Source: Armatimonadota bacterium (GTDB taxonomy: Bacteria > Armatimonadota > UBA5829). Taken from it: a stretch of 64,000 nucleotides of DNA. The notes beneath the pieces are model-generated. The model saw nothing but the letters and a program-made list of their open reading frames with translations. It made no database searches and was not told the origin of the DNA. The translations under genes and the position numbers were made by a program. Shown here one piece after another: positions 7,761 through 36,641 of this stretch. The stretch is taken from positions 41,142 through 105,141 of the forward strand of contig JAPLCU010000012.1 in NCBI GenBank assembly GCA_026392045.1. Reading direction: 5' to 3'. Position 1 is the first letter of the stretch, and every line of letters starts with the position of its first letter.

Positions 7761-9473
7761 CTATGGCGCAAGCTCTGAAACTCCACAAACTTTCCAATCG
7801 CCGCGCGGTTTGGTCTTGCAGAGGCTGATTTTCTCAAATATTTTGTTGTGGCTGGGAATATTGAAAACTACCTCGACCTCGGCTCTGTCTTTGCCCAGAT
7901 ATTCGGGCGCACGCACCACGTAGCTCGCGGCTTTGTCATGAACCAGGCCATGATATTCTTTTGCTTTGATTTTGGCTTCGGCGGCTCCGTTCCAACCCGG
8001 CGCGCTTTCTACGGAATAATTGAGCGCCTTTGAGACTTTGTTCCTGGCCAATTGCTGCACCCAAACCCACGCAACCCGGTCTGTGGCTATGGGCATGGTG
8101 TAGCGATACCCGATCCAGCAGGAGAGGATAATCAAGCCCATGAAAGCCGTCGATACAACGCGATGTTTTTGTCTGCAAGTATAGATGTCTGCCCGCGTGC
8201 TGGTGGAGCGTCTATTGCAGACCCATGTAAAGCTGATTACCGTGCCTGCAGTGATTAGTATCGCGCTGATCCAGAACGGGACGTTATAATTTATTACCCC
8301 AAGTTTCGGAAAACTCAACGCATCTGATTTGTAGATAAGCGGCCCAACGAGCGTTCCAGCCATCGCCGCCAAGCCCTGAGCCAAACCCACCGCGCCCAGC
8401 ACCTCTCCGCGCCGTTTGGGGTCGGTCGCGGAAATAACAAGGGCGTTCCAGGCAGGAAATGCGACTGTGAACCCAAGCCCGATTAGAATTCCAGCGATAC
8501 CAATTAAGGGCAAGAACTTGGTGAGAGCCAAAACCCACATAGCAATTGAGCTGGCAAATAGACCCCAGCAGACCGCCGAAGTTTTTCCGTATTTGTCGCC
8601 CAAATGACCAAGCGGAATAGCAAAAATACCCATAAATGCTGCAATCGGCGCAACAGCAACGCCGAACTGGGTTTCGGTGAGCATTAGATGGTCTATTGCG
8701 TAGAGCTTGACAATAGGAGTCAGCATTCCCATTCCAAGGAATGTGACCATCGCCATGACCACCATATCCGGCACTTCCTTAAAGCTCCGCAAAATATGCT
8801 CGGGCTTGAAATCCGGCGGGGTTTCGTGACCGGGAATATCCACATGATGCGGCTTACCCAACTTTGGAAAGAAAACAAGAAGCACCAGAAATGAGAGCAC
8901 AAATAATATGCTGGCTAGATAGAACGATGCTTTGAGCGTGTGAAAATAATCATTCGCTCCGCCGCCAAGCAAAAAACCGAGCGCCATTCCGCCCATATAG
9001 GTGACATTGAGCACGCTTAGAGCGGCGCTTCGATGTTCATCGTCCACGAGATCGCCAACCGCAGCAAAAGCGTTCATCCACAGCGCGCTACTTCCCAGAC
9101 CATCAAGCACACGCAAGCCAATGAGGTAATAAAGGACATACGGGCCTCGGTAGACAATTGTAAGGTAAGAAGTAATCGCGGTAATAAGCGGACCCGCAAG
9201 CATAAGCGGTTTTCTGCCTATTCGGTCGCCAAGCGCGCCAAGAGCAGGCCGCGATAGCGCTTCCACAGCCAAGAACGTGCCAAAGATGAACCCCCAATTC
9301 TTGCCCAGATTCAGGGATTTATCCACATACATAGGCATAGCGGAGAGGTTTAAGACGGCGTACGCAAGCTCAGCCAAAAGCGCTGCGCTGGCGAGCATAA
9401 GAAGTGAGCGATATTCATGGGCTAATGGCCTAATTCTGACCATCGACTCTTTAAGCTTGATTTTAGAGATCAA
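7761..9473 (-). CDS. MFS transporter fused to an additional C-terminal soluble domain
   Basis: MFS signature GDRIGRKP, about 12 TM segments, then an extra TM helix and a roughly 110-aa hydrophilic domain. Confidence 0.7.
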   Translation of the reverse strand: MISKIKLKESMVRIRPLAHEYRSLLMLASAALLAELAYAVLNLSAMPMYVDKSLNLGKNWGFIFGTFLAVEALSRPALGALGDRIGRKPLMLAGPLITAITSYLTIVYRGPYVLYYLIGLRVLDGLGSSALWMNAFAAVGDLVDDEHRSAALSVLNVTYMGGMALGFLLGGGANDYFHTLKASFYLASILFVLSFLVLLVFFPKLGKPHHVDIPGHETPPDFKPEHILRSFKEVPDMVVMAMVTFLGMGMLTPIVKLYAIDHLMLTETQFGVAVAPIAAFMGIFAIPLGHLGDKYGKTSAVCWGLFASSIAMWVLALTKFLPLIGIAGILIGLGFTVAFPAWNALVISATDPKRRGEVLGAVGLAQGLAAMAGTLVGPLIYKSDALSFPKLGVINYNVPFWISAILITAGTVISFTWVCNRRSTSTRADIYTCRQKHRVVSTAFMGLIILSCWIGYRYTMPIATDRVAWVWVQQLARNKVSKALNYSVESAPGWNGAAEAKIKAKEYHGLVHDKAASYVVRAPEYLGKDRAEVEVVFNIPSHNKIFEKISLCKTKPRGDWKVCGVSELAP

Positions 9474-9548: not shown

Positions 9549-9576
9549 GTGCCGCATCAGAGATTGTGCCCGAACA
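9549..9576 (+). repeat. Family B REP-like element (degenerate copy)
   Basis: GTGCCGCATCAGAGATTGTGCCCGAACA. It shares the TCAGAGATTG loop and the CCCGAACA tail. Confidence 0.55.
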
Positions 9577-10757: not shown

Positions 10758-12224
10758 CTATCCCTTTGCCACTCCCAGCGGCCGCATTTTGGCCACTATT
10801 CTGGAAATATCTGCGCCCTGGCAGGTTTCCACTACGTCGGCTACGTCTTTATAGGCATACGACGCTTCTTCTGAAAGAGTGTCCCTGCCCTTTGCTTTCA
10901 CAACAATTCCTCTGGCGGCAAGTTCTTCCTGAACGGCTTTACCGGTCATCTTCTTGATGGCAGCGTGCCTGCTCATGACTCGACCGGCGCCGTGGCAGGC
11001 GCTTCCCCAGGTAAGCTTCATCGAGGTCTCGGTGCCTACGAGCAGGAACGAATATCTGCCCATGTCTCCAGGCACTATCACAGGTTGGCCGACCTTGCGA
11101 TATTGCTTTGGAATATTTTCATTGCCTGGCCCAAAAGCTCTGGTCGCGCCTTTTCGGTGGACGCAGAGTTTTTTGAGCTTGCCGTCGACCTCATGATGCT
11201 CGATTTTGGCCATGTTGTGCGCAACATCGTAAACCTGATTCAAACCTAACTTATACGCGCCCGCCCCTAATACCTTCTCAAAACTTTCTCGCACCCAATG
11301 CGCGATCGCCTGACGATTTGCCCAGGCGAAGTTTGCCGCGCAAGCCATAGCTCCAAGATATTGCTGTCCCTCTGGCGAAGTGATCGGCGCGCAGGCCAGT
11401 TGGCGGTCTGGGATCGATATATTGTATTTTTGAGCCGCTCTTTGCATGACATGCAGCGAATCTTCGCAGACCTGATGGCCAAAACCCCGGCTGCCGGTGT
11501 GAATCATGACGGTGATCTGGCCGGGTTCGGTGATGCCGAAAATGTGTGCAATTTCAACGTCATATATCTCTTCAACTACCTGAATTTCCATAAAATGGTT
11601 CCCCGCGCCAAGAGTGCCGAGTTGGGGCCTGCCGCGCTTTATGGCTTCTTTGCTGATGACATCCGGATCGGCAAAATCCATCGCGCCGCCCTGCTCGCTC
11701 ACTTCGAGGTCCTCGGCCCACCCCATTCCATGCTCAACCATCCACTTTGCGCCCTTGCGCATAACCTGCTTTAGCTCCTGATCATCAAGACGAAGTTTAC
11801 CCTCGCCGCCGACACCGGTCGGGACGTTCATATAAAGCTGGTCGATGAGGTCTGAAACGCGGCCTTTCACGTCTTTTAGAGTGAGATCGCTGCGAAGTAA
11901 TCGAACGCCGCAGTTGATGTCGTAACCCACCCCGCCAGGTGAAACCACGCCGGTTTCGTAGTCCATCGCGGCAACTCCGCCTATGGGGAACCCGTAGCCC
12001 CAGTGAATATCCGGCATAGCCATCGATTGGCCGACTATCCCCGGCAGGAACGCGACATTTGCGACCTGCTCCAGGGCTTCGTCCTGCATAATCTGCTGAA
12101 GCATGCTTTCAGTGGCAAAAACCACGCCGTCTGTCCGCATTCCAGACTTATAGCTCTGTGGAATCCGCCACCTGTAATCATCTATTTTTTGGAGTATTTG
12201 AGTCCACTCAGGCATATTATTCAC
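10758..12224 (-). CDS. rtcB: RNA-splicing ligase RtcB
   Basis: 488 aa with conserved metal and GTP-binding motifs (GAGNHFMEIQ, HTGSRGFGHQV). Confidence 0.9.
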   Translation of the reverse strand: MNNMPEWTQILQKIDDYRWRIPQSYKSGMRTDGVVFATESMLQQIMQDEALEQVANVAFLPGIVGQSMAMPDIHWGYGFPIGGVAAMDYETGVVSPGGVGYDINCGVRLLRSDLTLKDVKGRVSDLIDQLYMNVPTGVGGEGKLRLDDQELKQVMRKGAKWMVEHGMGWAEDLEVSEQGGAMDFADPDVISKEAIKRGRPQLGTLGAGNHFMEIQVVEEIYDVEIAHIFGITEPGQITVMIHTGSRGFGHQVCEDSLHVMQRAAQKYNISIPDRQLACAPITSPEGQQYLGAMACAANFAWANRQAIAHWVRESFEKVLGAGAYKLGLNQVYDVAHNMAKIEHHEVDGKLKKLCVHRKGATRAFGPGNENIPKQYRKVGQPVIVPGDMGRYSFLLVGTETSMKLTWGSACHGAGRVMSRHAAIKKMTGKAVQEELAARGIVVKAKGRDTLSEEASYAYKDVADVVETCQGADISRIVAKMRPLGVAKG

Positions 12225-12809
12225 CTATTTACAGTTGTCGCAAATGTCTGATTTTCCATCGTGCAAATTGTTGCACATCGAACACTTACGCCACCCATTT
12301 TCGAGCTTAGATTTCTCTAATTTCTTGCTTGTCAGGACTGCATGCGCGATGCGTTTTGCCAGCTCTTCCGAAGGGCTGATAGATGCGACTTTTTGGGCCA
12401 GTTCGGATGCTAACAAATCGATTTCTACGGCCTCTATATCGTCTTTTGGTATGTTGGGCTTATTTGCGGCCAGAGAGGCCTCCAGCGCCTTTTTGAAACC
12501 CCTGGAAGAGAAGCGGATGTCAGTGACCACTTTGCTGCCCGCCGCTTTGTTGAGTTCTTTGATTATATGCTGCTTATGGAAGGTGCATTCGTTTGCCCAT
12601 GCGCTGCTTTTGCAGCAAACATATAAAATGCCCTCCTGGATTCTTTCGGCAACGGTGACAGCGGCAATGTGCGTACCCACGACCTGCTTCCATTTTATCA
12701 CGGCCTGATACTGCATTATTTTATGGCGAAGCCCCATTTCTTCCAAAGACCTGTTTACCAAGCCCCCGAGTCTGTTGAAATTGCCTCTTCTGAAATCCGA
12801 TCTTCTCAT
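12225..12809 (-). CDS. DUF721 (DciA-like, helicase-loader family) protein with a C-terminal Cys4 zinc ribbon
   Basis: MRRSDFRRG N-terminus and SSAWANECTFHKQHIIKELN core typical of DUF721. The usual recF-downstream position. C-terminal CSMCN...CDNCK. Confidence 0.7.
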   Translation of the reverse strand: MRRSDFRRGNFNRLGGLVNRSLEEMGLRHKIMQYQAVIKWKQVVGTHIAAVTVAERIQEGILYVCCKSSAWANECTFHKQHIIKELNKAAGSKVVTDIRFSSRGFKKALEASLAANKPNIPKDDIEAVEIDLLASELAQKVASISPSEELAKRIAHAVLTSKKLEKSKLENGWRKCSMCNNLHDGKSDICDNCK

Positions 12810-13924
12810 ATTGCCGTAACCTTGCCCGATTTTACCTCAAAAATAGCTGCCGAGCTCGTGGCGACATCTCGGATATCGTCCAGGCTGGTGGTGGTTATGA
12901 AAGTCTGACACTTGCCCAGCATTATCTCTAAAATGCGCGCTCGGCGTGTTTCGTCGAGTTCCGCCATTACATCATCCAACAACACAACCGGACTTTCCTC
13001 CGCAGATTCTTCCATAAGCTCGATTTCCGCAAGTTTAATTGCGATAGCCGCAGACCGCTGCTGGCCCTGGGAGGCGAATTCTTTGGCGGGAAAATTGTTG
13101 ACGCTTAGAAGAATATCATCCCTGTGAGGGCCCGCGGATGTTGTTCCCCTGAAAATGTCATTCTCTCGCCTGGATGCCAGTTTTCTTGCATAAGCGGATT
13201 CAATCTCTTTTTCAGTATCTGAAGCGGAGCATTCTATATTGGGTTTATAAGATATTTTGAAATCTTCGGATTGATCCGTGAGCAATGCATAGATTCTGGC
13301 AGCCGCTGCGGCTAGAAAATCTATAAATTTGGCACGGCGGTGGATCACGCTCGCTCCATATTGGCAGAGCTGAGAATCCCACATTTCCAAGTCTGGCGCT
13401 TTCGCGGAACCTTTATTAATTTCCTTCAGGAGATTGTTTCTCTGATCCAGGACCCTTTTATAACGCCCGAGAGCATAAATATATTGAGGGCGGATTTGGG
13501 CGATTTCCAGATTGAGAAATCGCCTGCGCAGCGATGGTTCGCCTCTGACCATATCTATGTCTGAATTGCTGAAAATTACTGCGTTTAATTGACCTATTAT
13601 GTCCCCGATCTTCGGGGTTTTGACTTTGTTTATCTTAACAGCCTTTTTTTCTTGCCTATTGAGGATAATCTCTAAAATTGCATCGCTTCTTGCTGATCTT
13701 GTGATTTCCACACAAGCTCTGGCATTGATATCCCCTATCTTTATCATGTCCATATCTCGAGATGTCCTATGAGATTTACTCGTCGCCAAGAGATAAAGAG
13801 CTTCAAGTATTGCGCTTTTTCCCTGCGCATTAGGACCCACGAGAATGTTCAACCCCTTAGAGGGCTTGAATTCTAAATGCTCATAATTCCGAAAGTTAGT
13901 CAGACAGATCGTATCAATATACAT
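12806..13924 (-). CDS. recF: DNA replication and repair protein RecF
   Basis: Walker A GPNAQGKSAILEAL and SMC-like signature, 372 aa. The stop overlaps the start of the downstream DUF721 gene. Confidence 0.9.
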   Translation of the reverse strand: MYIDTICLTNFRNYEHLEFKPSKGLNILVGPNAQGKSAILEALYLLATSKSHRTSRDMDMIKIGDINARACVEITRSARSDAILEIILNRQEKKAVKINKVKTPKIGDIIGQLNAVIFSNSDIDMVRGEPSLRRRFLNLEIAQIRPQYIYALGRYKRVLDQRNNLLKEINKGSAKAPDLEMWDSQLCQYGASVIHRRAKFIDFLAAAAARIYALLTDQSEDFKISYKPNIECSASDTEKEIESAYARKLASRRENDIFRGTTSAGPHRDDILLSVNNFPAKEFASQGQQRSAAIAIKLAEIELMEESAEESPVVLLDDVMAELDETRRARILEIMLGKCQTFITTTSLDDIRDVATSSAAIFEVKSGKVTAI

Positions 13925-14241
13925 GGTCTATATATTATATATATAAATTGTGGTAGTGGTAATAGGAGGTGTGGATACTGTGGAAAACAGCCTCTATTAC
14001 GCTTACCCTAAGCTCATCTGCTCATGTGGACAAAACAGGGTGAACCATAAGCCCAACTGCTAAGCTGCTGTAAAAACTATGTGGATACTAACAACCGCGC
14101 AATCCACATTACTATCAACAGATTTGTCCACAGGTTCTTACCGGAAGGTTTCCACAAGTTTTACATGGCCTTTCATGGGCAATAATGTCTGAAATTCAAA
14201 GGTTGTGGAAGGGCGCACTCAAGTGACAGATAGCATATTCT
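13925..14241. promoter_or_regulatory. oriC: Putative chromosomal replication origin (oriC): AT-rich DUE plus a cluster of DnaA-box-like 9-mers
   Basis: AT-rich tract TATATATTATATATATAAATT at 13928-13950. At least seven TTATCCACA-like boxes on both strands: TGTGGATAC 13969-13977 and 14080-14088, TGTGGAAAA 13979-13987, TGTGGACAA 14026-14034, ATCCACA 14103-14109, TTGTCCACA 14123-14131, TTTCCACA 14150-14157, TGTGGAAGG 14205-14213. Confidence 0.7.
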
Positions 14242-14244
14242 TAC

Positions 14245-14309
14245 GGGCGGATCAGAGATTCCGCCCGAACATAGAATGGGGACGCCCGCATCAGAGATTG
14301 CGGGCGAAC
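14245..14309 (+). repeat. Two tandem REP-like hairpins of family B (stem-TCAGAGAT-stem + GAAC tail) immediately downstream of dnaA
   Basis: CGGGCGGATCAGAGATTCCGCCCGAACA and CGCCCGCATCAGAGATTGCGGGCGAAC. The stems differ but remain complementary. Confidence 0.75.
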
Positions 14310-14341
14310 TTCGAATGGTGTTGGCCCGAACATGGTGTTGA

Positions 14342-15745: not shown

Positions 15746-15901
15746 CCCTAAAAGCGCTTATAAAATCTAAGAACTTGATTATAGCACTCAGCCACATGAG
15801 CTATCAACCATTACAACAGAAATTTTATGTCCCAAAATTACCCAACATTATTGCAGGAAAAATAGAGGATTACCTGTAATATCTCATTCTCGGTGAGAAA
15901 G

Positions 15902-15971
15902 GGGAGGGCGAGGCTCCCGCCGAGCTTCTTAACTGCGAAGGGAAACGGCTCAGGGGGACCTTCGCCCTCCC
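15902..15971 (+). repeat. 70-nt GC-rich structured element (family D), copy 1
   Basis: GGGAGGGCGAGGCTCCCGCCGAGCTTCTTAACTGCGAAGGGAAACGGCTCAGGGGGACCTTCGCCCTCCCC. Its 12-bp terminal arms are complementary. About 93% identical to 51856-51925. Confidence 0.7.
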
Positions 15972-16087
15972 CAGGCTCACTCAGTGTTTAGCCGCATACA
16001 GCGCAAGGGAAAAACAAAACGCCAGTTGGCAATAGATTACCACAAACTGGTAAGCCTCGGGTTGATTACACAAAGGAGGAATGGTAA

Positions 16088-17032
16088 ATGCACAGGGTAA
16101 GCGTATCGGCAATAATCTTCTCGGTTCTATTATTGATGGCTGTGAGCCCACCGGTTTTGTCTGGCAGGCTGAATGGTGAAGTTACTCAGGTGACCGATTT
16201 CGGCATCTCTGCAACATTTCCCGCCGCAGTGAAGCCAGGTTCGGCGATGATGGTGATGAGCGGCATGGGAGAATCTGTCTGCGCAATGGCAATCTCGGAT
16301 TCCTGCCAGGGGGAGGGACCCTATTTTGTGAGTGGCAAGCTTGCCTGGATCACCGATATCTTGAATCTGAGATCCGGCAAAGTAGTGTATGTAAATTCCC
16401 TCAATGCAAGCGCCATACCAAGTCCTCCAGTTTCCAAGCCGAAGTATCAGGACCAGGATCTGAGATTTTACTATTATAGCGCTGCGCAGAATCTCGGTTA
16501 TGGAGCTGTTGGTCTGGGATTGGAGCGCTCGCTCAGAATTAGCAAAGGGCTGGCTTTGGAGATTGACGGCGGCATTACCGGCATGGGAAATCTGGCTGCA
16601 AATGGCGGCAATAAGATAAATACGGATTGCGTCATAAAGAACTTTAACGGCAGGTTGAAGATGGATCTGGTGCCGGGTTTCTGTATCTACACAGGCTATC
16701 GGTGGAACGAGGGACGCGGCAATGACCAGCGCTGGAGTAAACTTATCGATAACATTCCGAGGACGGAGTTCTTAAAAGAATCTGAAAAGGCAAGCGGCAC
16801 CGTGCTTCTGCAGGGATTGGAATATGGGCTGACAATAAGGCCGTTTCGGGCGATATCGGTCTCTGCGGGCTATGTGCCGCAGTTAAGAACCGACTTTGGC
16901 AGCATCGGCATTAGCTCTGAACCGGCATATACCGGCGAGCTGAGATTCGGCTATGGGAGCGGTGCAATAAGGCTGCGAGGAATGAAAACCAACAGCTACT
17001 GGCTTGCGGATTTGAGCATTACCATAAAATAG
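16088..17032 (+). CDS. Hypothetical secreted protein
   Basis: N-terminal signal peptide (IIFSVLLLMAVSPPVLSG), GGAGG RBS, Gly/aromatic-rich sequence. I recognise no family. Confidence 0.5.
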   Translation: MHRVSVSAIIFSVLLLMAVSPPVLSGRLNGEVTQVTDFGISATFPAAVKPGSAMMVMSGMGESVCAMAISDSCQGEGPYFVSGKLAWITDILNLRSGKVVYVNSLNASAIPSPPVSKPKYQDQDLRFYYYSAAQNLGYGAVGLGLERSLRISKGLALEIDGGITGMGNLAANGGNKINTDCVIKNFNGRLKMDLVPGFCIYTGYRWNEGRGNDQRWSKLIDNIPRTEFLKESEKASGTVLLQGLEYGLTIRPFRAISVSAGYVPQLRTDFGSIGISSEPAYTGELRFGYGSGAIRLRGMKTNSYWLADLSITIK

Positions 17033-17104
17033 CTTCGGTGATCGAGATTTTTATCACGATGTGCGGTAGGCTTCGGCATCAGGATACCGAAGCAACTAAC
17101 TGTT

Positions 17105-17128
17105 GGGCCGCAATCTCTGATGCGGCCC
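17105..17128 (-). repeat. Family B REP-like hairpin, inverted orientation
   Basis: GGGCCGCAATCTCTGATGCGGCCC, that is GGCCGCA-TCAGAGAT-TGCGGCC on the other strand. Confidence 0.7.
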
Positions 17129-35570: not shown

Positions 35571-36641
35571 TTAGAGGTCGATGAAGACCTTCATGGACTT
35601 GTCGCCCTGTTCGTCAATGTAGCGATAGGCGTCCATATAGCGCTCGAGCGGGAAATGCTTGGAATCCAGCGGCTCGGTTTTGATTTTGCCGCTTGCGATC
35701 CATTCGACCGCCTGCACGTAATCTTCGTAACGATACATCATGGTGCCGATTATGGAAAGCTCATGCTCGCCCACGCGTGCCATGTCTATTCCCGGCTTGC
35801 CTCCGAAAACTCCCAGCACAACAATAGCGCCGCCCTTGCCGATGGCTTGAATGGCCTGGTCCATGGCGGCTTCGCTGCCTGCGGCTTCCATCGCAAGGTC
35901 GAAGCCTTCATCGCCGAAAACTCGTTTGGCGGCTTGGGCCAGGGTCTCTTCTTTGGCGTTCGATACGGCGTCTATGCCCACCTGGCGAGCAATTTCCAGC
36001 CGGTAAGCGCTGATATCTGTGATCAAAACTTTTTTCGCGCCGCGGCATTTGCACGCTTGCGCTGCGTAGTTGCCTATCGGGCCTGCGCCGAGCACGACCA
36101 CATTTTTGCCCTCAACCCCGCCTGCTCTGGCGGTGGAATGTGCGCCCACGGCCACTGGCTCAATGAAAGCGCCCTGCTCCGGGGTGAACGAATCCGGCAA
36201 TATGACTATTTTGTCTGCCTCGGTGGCGTAAAGGTCCTGCGCAACACCCGGCGCCTGGAACCCGCGCACCTTGAGGTTTTCGCATACGTTATACTGCCCC
36301 CGCAGACACGGTCGGCACTCTCCGCAGACCTCTTGGGGAGTTGCAGTGACCTTCATTCCAGGCTTTATGTCAGTGACACCCTCGCCAACGGCTTCAACAA
36401 TCGCCGAAAACTCATGTCCCTGAACCACGGGGTATTTGGTAAAAGGGTGCTTGCCGTGATTTACATGAACATCGCTCCCGCACACGCCAATGCGCTGGAT
36501 TCGCATGAGCGCCTGTCCCTTGCCGGCAACGGCGTCCGGCACCTGGCGGATTTCTATCACGCCTGGCGCTGTCATAACTGCTTGTCGCACAGTATTATTC
36601 CTCCTGATCACTTTCTCTGAGCTGTTTGAAGCCCAGCCCAT
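35571..36641 (-). CDS. Zinc-dependent medium-chain alcohol/polyol dehydrogenase (sorbitol/threonine dehydrogenase-like)
   Basis: GVCGSDVH, GHEFSAIVEAVG, structural-zinc Cys cluster CGECRPCLRGQYNVC, Rossmann VVVLGAGPIG. Confidence 0.85.
   Translation of the reverse strand: MGWASNSSEKVIRRNNTVRQAVMTAPGVIEIRQVPDAVAGKGQALMRIQRIGVCGSDVHVNHGKHPFTKYPVVQGHEFSAIVEAVGEGVTDIKPGMKVTATPQEVCGECRPCLRGQYNVCENLKVRGFQAPGVAQDLYATEADKIVILPDSFTPEQGAFIEPVAVGAHSTARAGGVEGKNVVVLGAGPIGNYAAQACKCRGAKKVLITDISAYRLEIARQVGIDAVSNAKEETLAQAAKRVFGDEGFDLAMEAAGSEAAMDQAIQAIGKGGAIVVLGVFGGKPGIDMARVGEHELSIIGTMMYRYEDYVQAVEWIASGKIKTEPLDSKHFPLERYMDAYRYIDEQGDKSMKVFIDL

Follow-up and report, generated by a model that had tools for sequence, protein, structure and literature searches.

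Results

Genes flanking the dnaA–recF gap

The window analysed here, a 64-kb stretch of DNA from an uncultured Armatimonadota bacterium, carries on its minus strand the consecutive genes dnaA, recF, a DUF721 gene encoding a DciA-type helicase operator, and rtcB (Table 1), an order that had been proposed in a first-pass annotation of the sequence and was borne out by Pfam searches. The start of dciA overlaps the recF stop by 4 nt, and dnaA and recF are separated by a gap of 417 bp (13925–14341), in which most of the features described below are located. The DnaA protein encoded in the window is 56–75% identical to the DnaA proteins of about 20 Armatimonadota metagenome-assembled genomes (MAGs) and its RecF is 47–90% identical to the RecF proteins of Armatimonadota MAGs, the only record of the exact recF–dciA sequence being a short assembly from a public sequencing run (SRR20698647).

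The canonical dnaA–dnaN–recF–gyrB arrangement, with dnaN right after dnaA and gyrB after recF, was not found at this locus. The first-pass annotation had already remarked on the lack of dnaN and gyrB, and tblastn searches with E. coli DnaN and the N-terminus of E. coli GyrB extended this observation to the entire 64 kb, in which neither query gave a match; the same queries retrieved neither gene from any of the Armatimonadota dnaA or recF loci that were fetched. Both query sequences were validated by their matches in control loci, DnaN and GyrB being detected together in an Elusimicrobia locus, DnaN also in a Treponema locus, and both genes in most of the Firmicutes-like control loci.

Divergently oriented with respect to dnaA lies a 314-aa ORF (16088–17032, plus strand) with no Pfam match. 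Homologues with 39–50% identity adjoin dnaA or lie upstream of it in three loci (L002, L021 and L022), and an ORF equal in length and position is present in a further one (L110).

Table 1. Coordinates of genes and sequence features at the dnaA–recF locus (positions in the window)
Feature	Position	Strand	Remarks
dnaA	14342–15745	minus	467-aa ORF; Pfam DnaA_N, Bac_DnaA (2e-65) and Bac_DnaA_C, each full length
Distal box array	14100–14156	plus	CAATCCACA, CTATCAACA, TTGTCCACA, GTTTCCACA; 12-bp register
Single box GTATCCACA	14080–14088	minus	Same sequence as the pair's proximal box
Lone forward box TTGTCCACA	14025–14033	minus	37 nt upstream of the box pair
Abutting box pair TTTTCCACA GTATCCACA	13970–13987	minus	One mismatch each
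GC spacer (C) and DnaA-trio-like triplets	13948–13969	minus	CTC CTA TTA CCA CTA CCA CAA
Sigma-70-like promoter, predicted	13934–13962	minus	TTACCA-17-TATAAT; 10/12 positions matched (consensus scan)
AT-rich tract, predicted DNA unwinding element	13925–13952		Ends at the recF ATG
recF	12806–13924	minus	Pfam SMC_N
dciA (DUF721 helicase operator)	12225–12809	minus	Pfam PF05258, 8.7e-20
rtcB	10758–12224	minus	Pfam RtcB, 3.7e-177; abuts dciA; syntenic neighbour

DnaA boxes

Read in the direction of the genes, the dnaA stop is followed by two hairpins, the four-box array, a GTATCCACA box and a lone TTGTCCACA box, and then by a 37-nt spacer, the pair TTTTCCACA GTATCCACA, one C, the triplets, TTTATATATATAATATATAGACC and the recF ATG. 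At least seven DnaA-box-like 9-mers had been noticed on the two strands of the gap, two of them identical. Our count gave eight within two mismatches of TTATCCACA, starting at 13970, 13979, 14025 and 14080 in minus orientation and at 14100, 14112, 14124 and 14148 in plus orientation, and the identical boxes are the TGTGGATAC sequences at 13970–13978 and 14080–14088. The eight boxes span 187 bp, and five of them, with a single mismatch, fall within 163 bp. Of the 24 one-mismatch boxes in the window, 5 thereby fall in the gap, as do 8 of the 44 TGTGGA cores, and no other 420-bp stretch of the window scores as high on any of the three counts. When enrichment was checked, as the first-pass annotation had suggested, Poisson p values, uncorrected for the number of windows, ranged from 7e-9 to 1e-11, and when the sequence of the gap was resampled with a first-order Markov model, eight boxes were reached in 0.04% of cases. 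A statistically enriched intergenic DnaA-box cluster, which is one of the marks of an oriC, is therefore present in the gap.

The distal array has one empty position in its register and an orientation opposite to that of the proximal pair, pointing toward dnaA; arrays of 3–8 boxes with 3-bp spacers occupy the equivalent position in relatives. No DnaA-box cluster was found upstream of dnaA at 15746–16087, and a bipartite origin was rejected on this account. Elsewhere in the window, an MFS transporter gene (7761–9473) contains four one-mismatch or perfect boxes within 1 kb (8330–9327), located at 8330, 8836 and 9074 and, as a perfect TTATCCACA, at 9319, about 4.6–5.6 kb from the putative origin. 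This group may represent a secondary DnaA-binding cluster or may have arisen by chance.

Hairpins next to the dnaA stop

Two REP-like hairpins described next to the dnaA stop proved to be 37-nt direct repeats (14243–14279 and 14282–14318), each of them able to form an 8-bp stem with an 8-nt loop. The stem sequence differs between the two copies in a compensatory manner, the pairing being kept. The element can be defined as a GC-rich stem of 7–8 bp, a loop ATCAGAGATT and a tail CGAAC, and further copies occur in other intergenic gaps, a perfect one at 17102–17121 (minus strand) and a degenerate one at 9556–9575. With four copies in three intergenic gaps, three of them with perfect 7–8 bp stems, the hairpins behave as a REP-type element, and because of the copies in other intergenic gaps we regard them as dispersed rather than origin-specific. 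Roles as dnaA terminators or as origin elements were rejected, owing to the lack of a T tail and to these additional copies. Among all the fetched loci, the element was detected exclusively in L001, which is the window's own sequence. An Rfam scan of the gap returned a single sub-threshold sRNA match without significance (15.5 bits versus a gathering score of 428).

Box pair, trios and AT-rich tract

An AT-rich tract directly followed by DnaA boxes had been described at the recF end of the gap. Both tract and boxes are there, but they are not contiguous, since about 21 bp of trinucleotide repeats (13948–13969) lie between them. On the complementary plus strand (13948–13968) these repeats read 3'-GAG GAT AAT GGT GAT GGT GTT-5'. 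The AT-rich tract (13926–13952) reaches at least 92% AT over 24 bp, as happens at only one other place in the 64 kb, and provides the AT-rich unwinding element expected to flank the boxes of an oriC.

This order of elements is that of the basal unwinding system (BUS) defined in B. subtilis, in which tandem boxes are followed, after a short GC spacer, by three or more DnaA-trios (3'-GAT-5' consensus) and an AT-rich element (PMC6669920). Search rules for such modules were taken from Pelliciari 2021 (PMC8287927). They call for a box with at most two mismatches, optionally with a tandem box, oriented toward the trios, and TTTTCCACA and GTATCCACA abut in just this manner. They further call for an unbroken run of three or more trios with A in the centre (3'-NAN-5'), no more than 16 bp from the first box, and here CTC CTA TTA (3'-GAG GAT AAT-5') begin 1 nt after the second box, with CCA CTA CCA CAA continuing the series. 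No other box pair in the window is followed by at least five of seven trios and then by an AT-rich tract.

A wider scan covered both strands of 849 kb, comprising the window and the fetched loci, and asked for two boxes separated by 0–3 nt, neither with more than two mismatches, together with five or more CTA-like triplets out of seven and a 16-mer rich in AT. It yielded 17 stringent matches, 13 of them in the Armatimonadota gap upstream of recF (the window and L001, which are the same sequence, both being counted). The window itself contains exactly one. Positive controls were provided by three matches in dnaA–dnaN gaps of Firmicutes-like loci (L064 and L065, which are one sequence, and L101), and a fourth control match, in L095, lies just upstream of its dnaN. 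One match, in the Firmicutes-like metagenome contig L089, is a full module of pair, trios and AT-rich tract situated between recF and gyrB (2747–2830) and not between dnaA and dnaN.

A promoter-like site within the module

The predicted sigma-70-like promoter has its −35 hexamer within the trios and its −10 hexamer within the AT-rich tract. In the window TATAAT and the recF ATG are 9 nt apart, so that a 5' leader of about 2–3 nt is predicted, and recF has no Shine-Dalgarno motif; a GGAGG-like motif is present in 27 of the 44 genes of the window. A leaderless or near-leaderless recF–dciA transcript that starts inside the unwinding element is predicted from these features, and the promoter-like site probably drives this transcript out of the origin. 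Since the hexamers overlap the trios and the AT-rich tract, some of the conservation reported below could be due to the promoter alone. A TATACT-like hexamer was also seen near the start of another gene (35571–36641, minus strand), as with recF.

Conservation of the module in Armatimonadota

The gap was compared with 21 related loci (L002, L004, L007–L009, L013–L018, L020–L022, L026–L028, L106–L108 and L110, making 22 with the window). The geometry of the module is nearly fixed among them, while the rest of the intergenic sequence is unalignable. An abutting pair is present in 21 of the 22 loci, the exception being L014, in which the first box is degenerate, and the lone box lies 36–38 nt upstream of the pair in every relative checked. 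TATAAT follows the pair at 28–31 nt in 14 of 15 loci scored, the recF ATG follows TATAAT at 8–11 nt in most loci, and an AT-rich tract occupies the equivalent position in the relatives. In the long relative OW818698.1 (8.2 Mb) the module is located near 3.54 Mb. The 21 nt after the pair display a strict 3-nt period in the 22 sequences and almost no G, every third position being A in 15–19 of them and the first position C in 11–17. The spacer between lone box and pair (13988–14024 in the window, 37 nt) is likewise of fixed length in the relatives, and many loci carry a semi-conserved AAGCGTG/AAGCACG about 15–20 nt upstream of the pair, a motif that could be a candidate site for an accessory origin protein.

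In canonical trios the central A is the most conserved position (PMC8287927). This does not hold across the 22 loci, where on the box-pair strand only 45% of the middle positions are T (A when read as 3'-GAT-5'), against 65% C and 75% A at the outer positions, so that the trio logo of the lineage is closer to 3'-GNT-5' than to the canonical one. The departure concerns the motif logo and not the architecture.

The succession dnaA, gap, recF and dciA was found in 14 relatives (L002, L004, L007, L008, L009, L014, L015, L017, L018, L020, L021, L022, L028 and L110), dciA follows recF in every related locus where the region is present, and the synteny with rtcB is shared as well. The gene context is unusual, as had been noted at first sight, but the same arrangement in relatives makes it typical of the lineage and not peculiar to this genome.

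Several loci, on the other hand, show the module apart from dnaA. In L016, the module occupies the space between pcrA/uvrD and recF, and dnaA, transcribed divergently from pcrA/uvrD, is located on the opposite strand at a distance of 2.8 kb. In three relatives dnaA is on another contig or missing from the 6 kb upstream of recF: GCA_964494345.1 has dnaA on contig 11 (L010) and recF on contig 2 (L108), GCA_038207085.1 has dnaA on contig 9 (L019) and recF on contig 2 (L106), and in these two recF loci as well as in L107 the recF–dciA–rtcB genes are preceded by unrelated ones (beta-lactamase-like or rpoN). The distal array, lone box, pair, trios and TATAAT are nonetheless all found directly upstream of recF in L106, L107 and L108, and no box cluster was detected within 6 kb of dnaA in the corresponding L010 and L019. 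These two belong to a set of seven Armatimonadota loci in which recF does not follow dnaA (L003, L005, L006, L010, L011, L012 and L019), and all seven lack a DnaA-box cluster within 6 kb, from which it follows that dnaA would not be autoregulated there via a nearby cluster. Two of them (L006 and L011) have cobO (corrinoid adenosyltransferase) after dnaA and a SpoIIE-type phosphatase gene upstream.

Judging from this comparison, the constant neighbour of the origin module is recF–dciA and not dnaA, and the module behaves as an independent element, separable from dnaA. No module was found upstream of recF in the distant recF–dciA loci L029, L036, L043 and L045 (RecF 38–43% identical), which makes the linkage of module and recF clade-specific. 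The recF gene of Fimbriimonas was not among the best 120 homologues, all of them close relatives.

GC skew

Skew in the window was analysed as a cumulative profile and per gene, at all sites and at third positions, with regression on strand and side and with every possible switch point considered. The cumulative curve of the 64-kb window has only a local minimum at 12–14 kb. Same-strand genes have an all-site skew of about −0.07 on the left side of the gap and of about +0.05 on its right side. At third positions the skew undergoes no sign change at the gap, and the best-fitting switch lies at about 57.7 kb with the wrong sign for an origin; the skew being patchy and leaving the test little power, we do not read this as evidence against an origin. 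At that position both third-position and all-site skew go from positive to negative with only five genes beyond, a change whose sign is of the terminus type or which may mark a rearrangement boundary.

Among 12 relatives, same-strand genes on the recF side exceed those on the dnaA or far side in coding-strand skew in 12 of 12 cases for all sites and in 11 of 12 for GC3. When the relatives were pooled, the strand asymmetry was strong on the recF side and about zero on the dnaA side, with no reversal, and pooled GC3 was fitted equally well whether or not the model included a switch at the gap. These loci are not independent, because the same syntenic genes recur in them. A jagged GC skew, in which no oriC could be identified, has also been reported for Fimbriimonas ginsengisoli Gsoil 348, a cultured member of the phylum (PMC4072686). 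Given the lack of a clean reversal, the non-independence of the loci and this precedent, we count the skew, which runs in the expected direction, as weak support for an origin at this site.

Discussion

The proposal that the dnaA–recF gap contains the chromosomal origin is supported by the non-random distribution of the boxes, their BUS geometry, the conservation of the module in 21 related loci and the absence of dnaN and gyrB. On these grounds we consider it very probable that the gap is a DnaA-dependent chromosomal oriC of the BUS type in this uncultured Armatimonadota bacterium. Points on the other side are the weakness of the skew signal, the low conservation of the central A in the trios and the overlap of the promoter-like hexamers with the trios and the AT-rich tract. 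At such an origin, DnaA would first occupy high-affinity sites, namely the pair (13987–13970), the lone box, the further box and the array (14100–14156), and ATP-DnaA would then oligomerise from the pair on one strand of six or seven trios (plus strand, 13948–13968). The resulting filament would stretch and open the adjoining 92% AT tract (13925–13952), and the loading of DnaB might be aided by the DciA-type helicase operator encoded two genes downstream. We infer these steps of DnaA binding, unwinding and helicase loading from the origins of B. subtilis and C. difficile, from H. pylori-type origins and from other BUS origins.

Other readings of the gap have to be weighed against this one. The module might be a DnaA-controlled promoter or operator of recF–dciA, at which box-bound DnaA would activate or repress TTACCA-17-TATAAT, the real oriC lying elsewhere, e.g. 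near dnaN. It always travels with recF–dciA, as expected of a promoter, and the match of 10 of 12 positions, the fixed distance of TATAAT from the box pair and from the recF ATG and the weakness of the skew evidence for an origin could be accommodated in the same way. A promoter, however, has no need of six in-register 5'-CNA-3' triplets, a GC spacer behind an abutting box pair or a 12-bp-register array of four to eight boxes. The BUS scan, moreover, finds the same signature in or next to the dnaA–dnaN gaps of control loci, and no other box cluster was found near dnaA in 21 Armatimonadota dnaA loci. We therefore judge it improbable that the module serves transcription instead of replication, bearing in mind that the promoter and origin functions are not mutually exclusive.

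A still smaller probability is assigned to the view that the boxes are no origin but titrate or recycle DnaA, as a cluster akin to datA, DARS or the DBCs of B. subtilis. Outside oriC, dense clusters of boxes are known in E. coli and B. subtilis (PMC3245932). The existence of such clusters and the variable adjacency of dnaA in the lineage would both fit a titrating role, which the geometry of pair, trios and AT-rich tract, conserved to the nucleotide in its spacing across 22 loci, argues against. To our knowledge, clusters of the datA, DARS and DBC types lack this geometry of oriented pair, trios and AT-rich tract. A chance build-up of words containing TGTGGA in AT-rich intergenic DNA would account for isolated boxes, given that single one-mismatch boxes arise by chance at about 0.4 per kb, but it is refuted by the Poisson values (7e-9 to 1e-11) and by an architecture conserved in 21 other loci, and its probability is practically nil.

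Within the preferred interpretation of the gap as a BUS-type oriC, we tentatively raise a more specific one, which we find possible though rather unlikely, namely that the origin and the recF–dciA operon constitute one fused unit, with dnaA as a frequent neighbour, a sigma-70 promoter inside the trios and unwinding element that fires a leaderless recF–dciA mRNA, and trios of the 3'-GNT-5' form. Were this true, the DnaA filament and the open complex of RNA polymerase would act on the same 40 bp, and either origin opening would be coupled to DciA expression or transcription would help to open the origin.

As a BUS-type oriC the gap would belong to a known class, and the general picture of bacterial replication initiation is left unchanged by it. 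It is set apart by the recF–dciA context without dnaN and gyrB, the monopartite organization, the variable adjacency of dnaA, the trio logo and the embedded promoter. The module can part from dnaA and dnaN and yet stay joined to recF–dciA. It provides a concrete candidate origin for a phylum that has been little studied and is mostly uncultured, and would add a deep-branching lineage to the evidence that the combination of box pair, trios and AT-rich tract is ancestral in bacteria. Its main value lies in its use as an origin marker for Armatimonadota genomes and in its being a natural example of an origin joined to the operon of the helicase operator. Origin prediction in MAGs and coverage-based estimates of replication rate could make use of it, as could work on the link between DciA-type helicase loading and the origin.

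Among known systems, a close parallel is found in the incC unwinding region of B. subtilis, located in the dnaA–dnaN gap (Richardson 2016/2019; Pelliciari 2021, PMC8287927; PMC6669920). There too, two tandem boxes in TTATCCACA orientation are followed by a short GC spacer, 3'-GAT-5'-like triplets on one strand, an AT-rich element and then the downstream gene, and a distal box subregion, which is required in B. subtilis, lies upstream, the whole being placed downstream of dnaA. The Armatimonadota locus differs in that the downstream gene is recF and not dnaN, in being monopartite, with no box cluster upstream of dnaA, and in the trios, whose outer positions (3'-G.T-5') are more conserved than the middle A. 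The helicase, handled in B. subtilis by DnaD/DnaB/DnaI, would here presumably be handled by DciA. The oriC2 of C. difficile, downstream of dnaA, has the trio sequence 5'-CACCTACTACTATTACTACTATGA-3' directly in front of its unwinding element (PMC7561715). Nearly the same string occurs in L002 and L015, and it resembles the CCTCCTATTACCACTACCACAA of the window, with matching orientation; unlike the origin proposed here, that of C. difficile is bipartite and has dnaN downstream (PMC7561715).

Within the phylum, our search for literature on the oriC of Armatimonadetes returned nothing beyond the description of F. ginsengisoli, in which dnaA, dnaN, recF and gyrB are scattered and dnaA and recF, the latter at about 1,929 kb, lie 1.9 Mb apart (PMC4072686). 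The initiation genes are unclustered in the window as they are in F. ginsengisoli, but the window and the 21 related loci carry an origin module upstream of recF.

The gene order itself resembles that of the actinobacterial origin cluster after removal of dnaN and gyrB. The origin cluster of Mycobacterium tuberculosis is dnaA-oriC-dnaN-recF-dciA(Rv0004)-gyrB-gyrA. In the window, as in the actinobacterial cluster, a DUF721/DciA gene comes right after recF, near oriC and dnaA (for DciA, see bioRxiv 10.1101/2022.01.24.477630). In contrast to that cluster, dnaN and gyrB are missing here and rtcB follows dciA, and because dnaN is missing the putative origin abuts recF directly.
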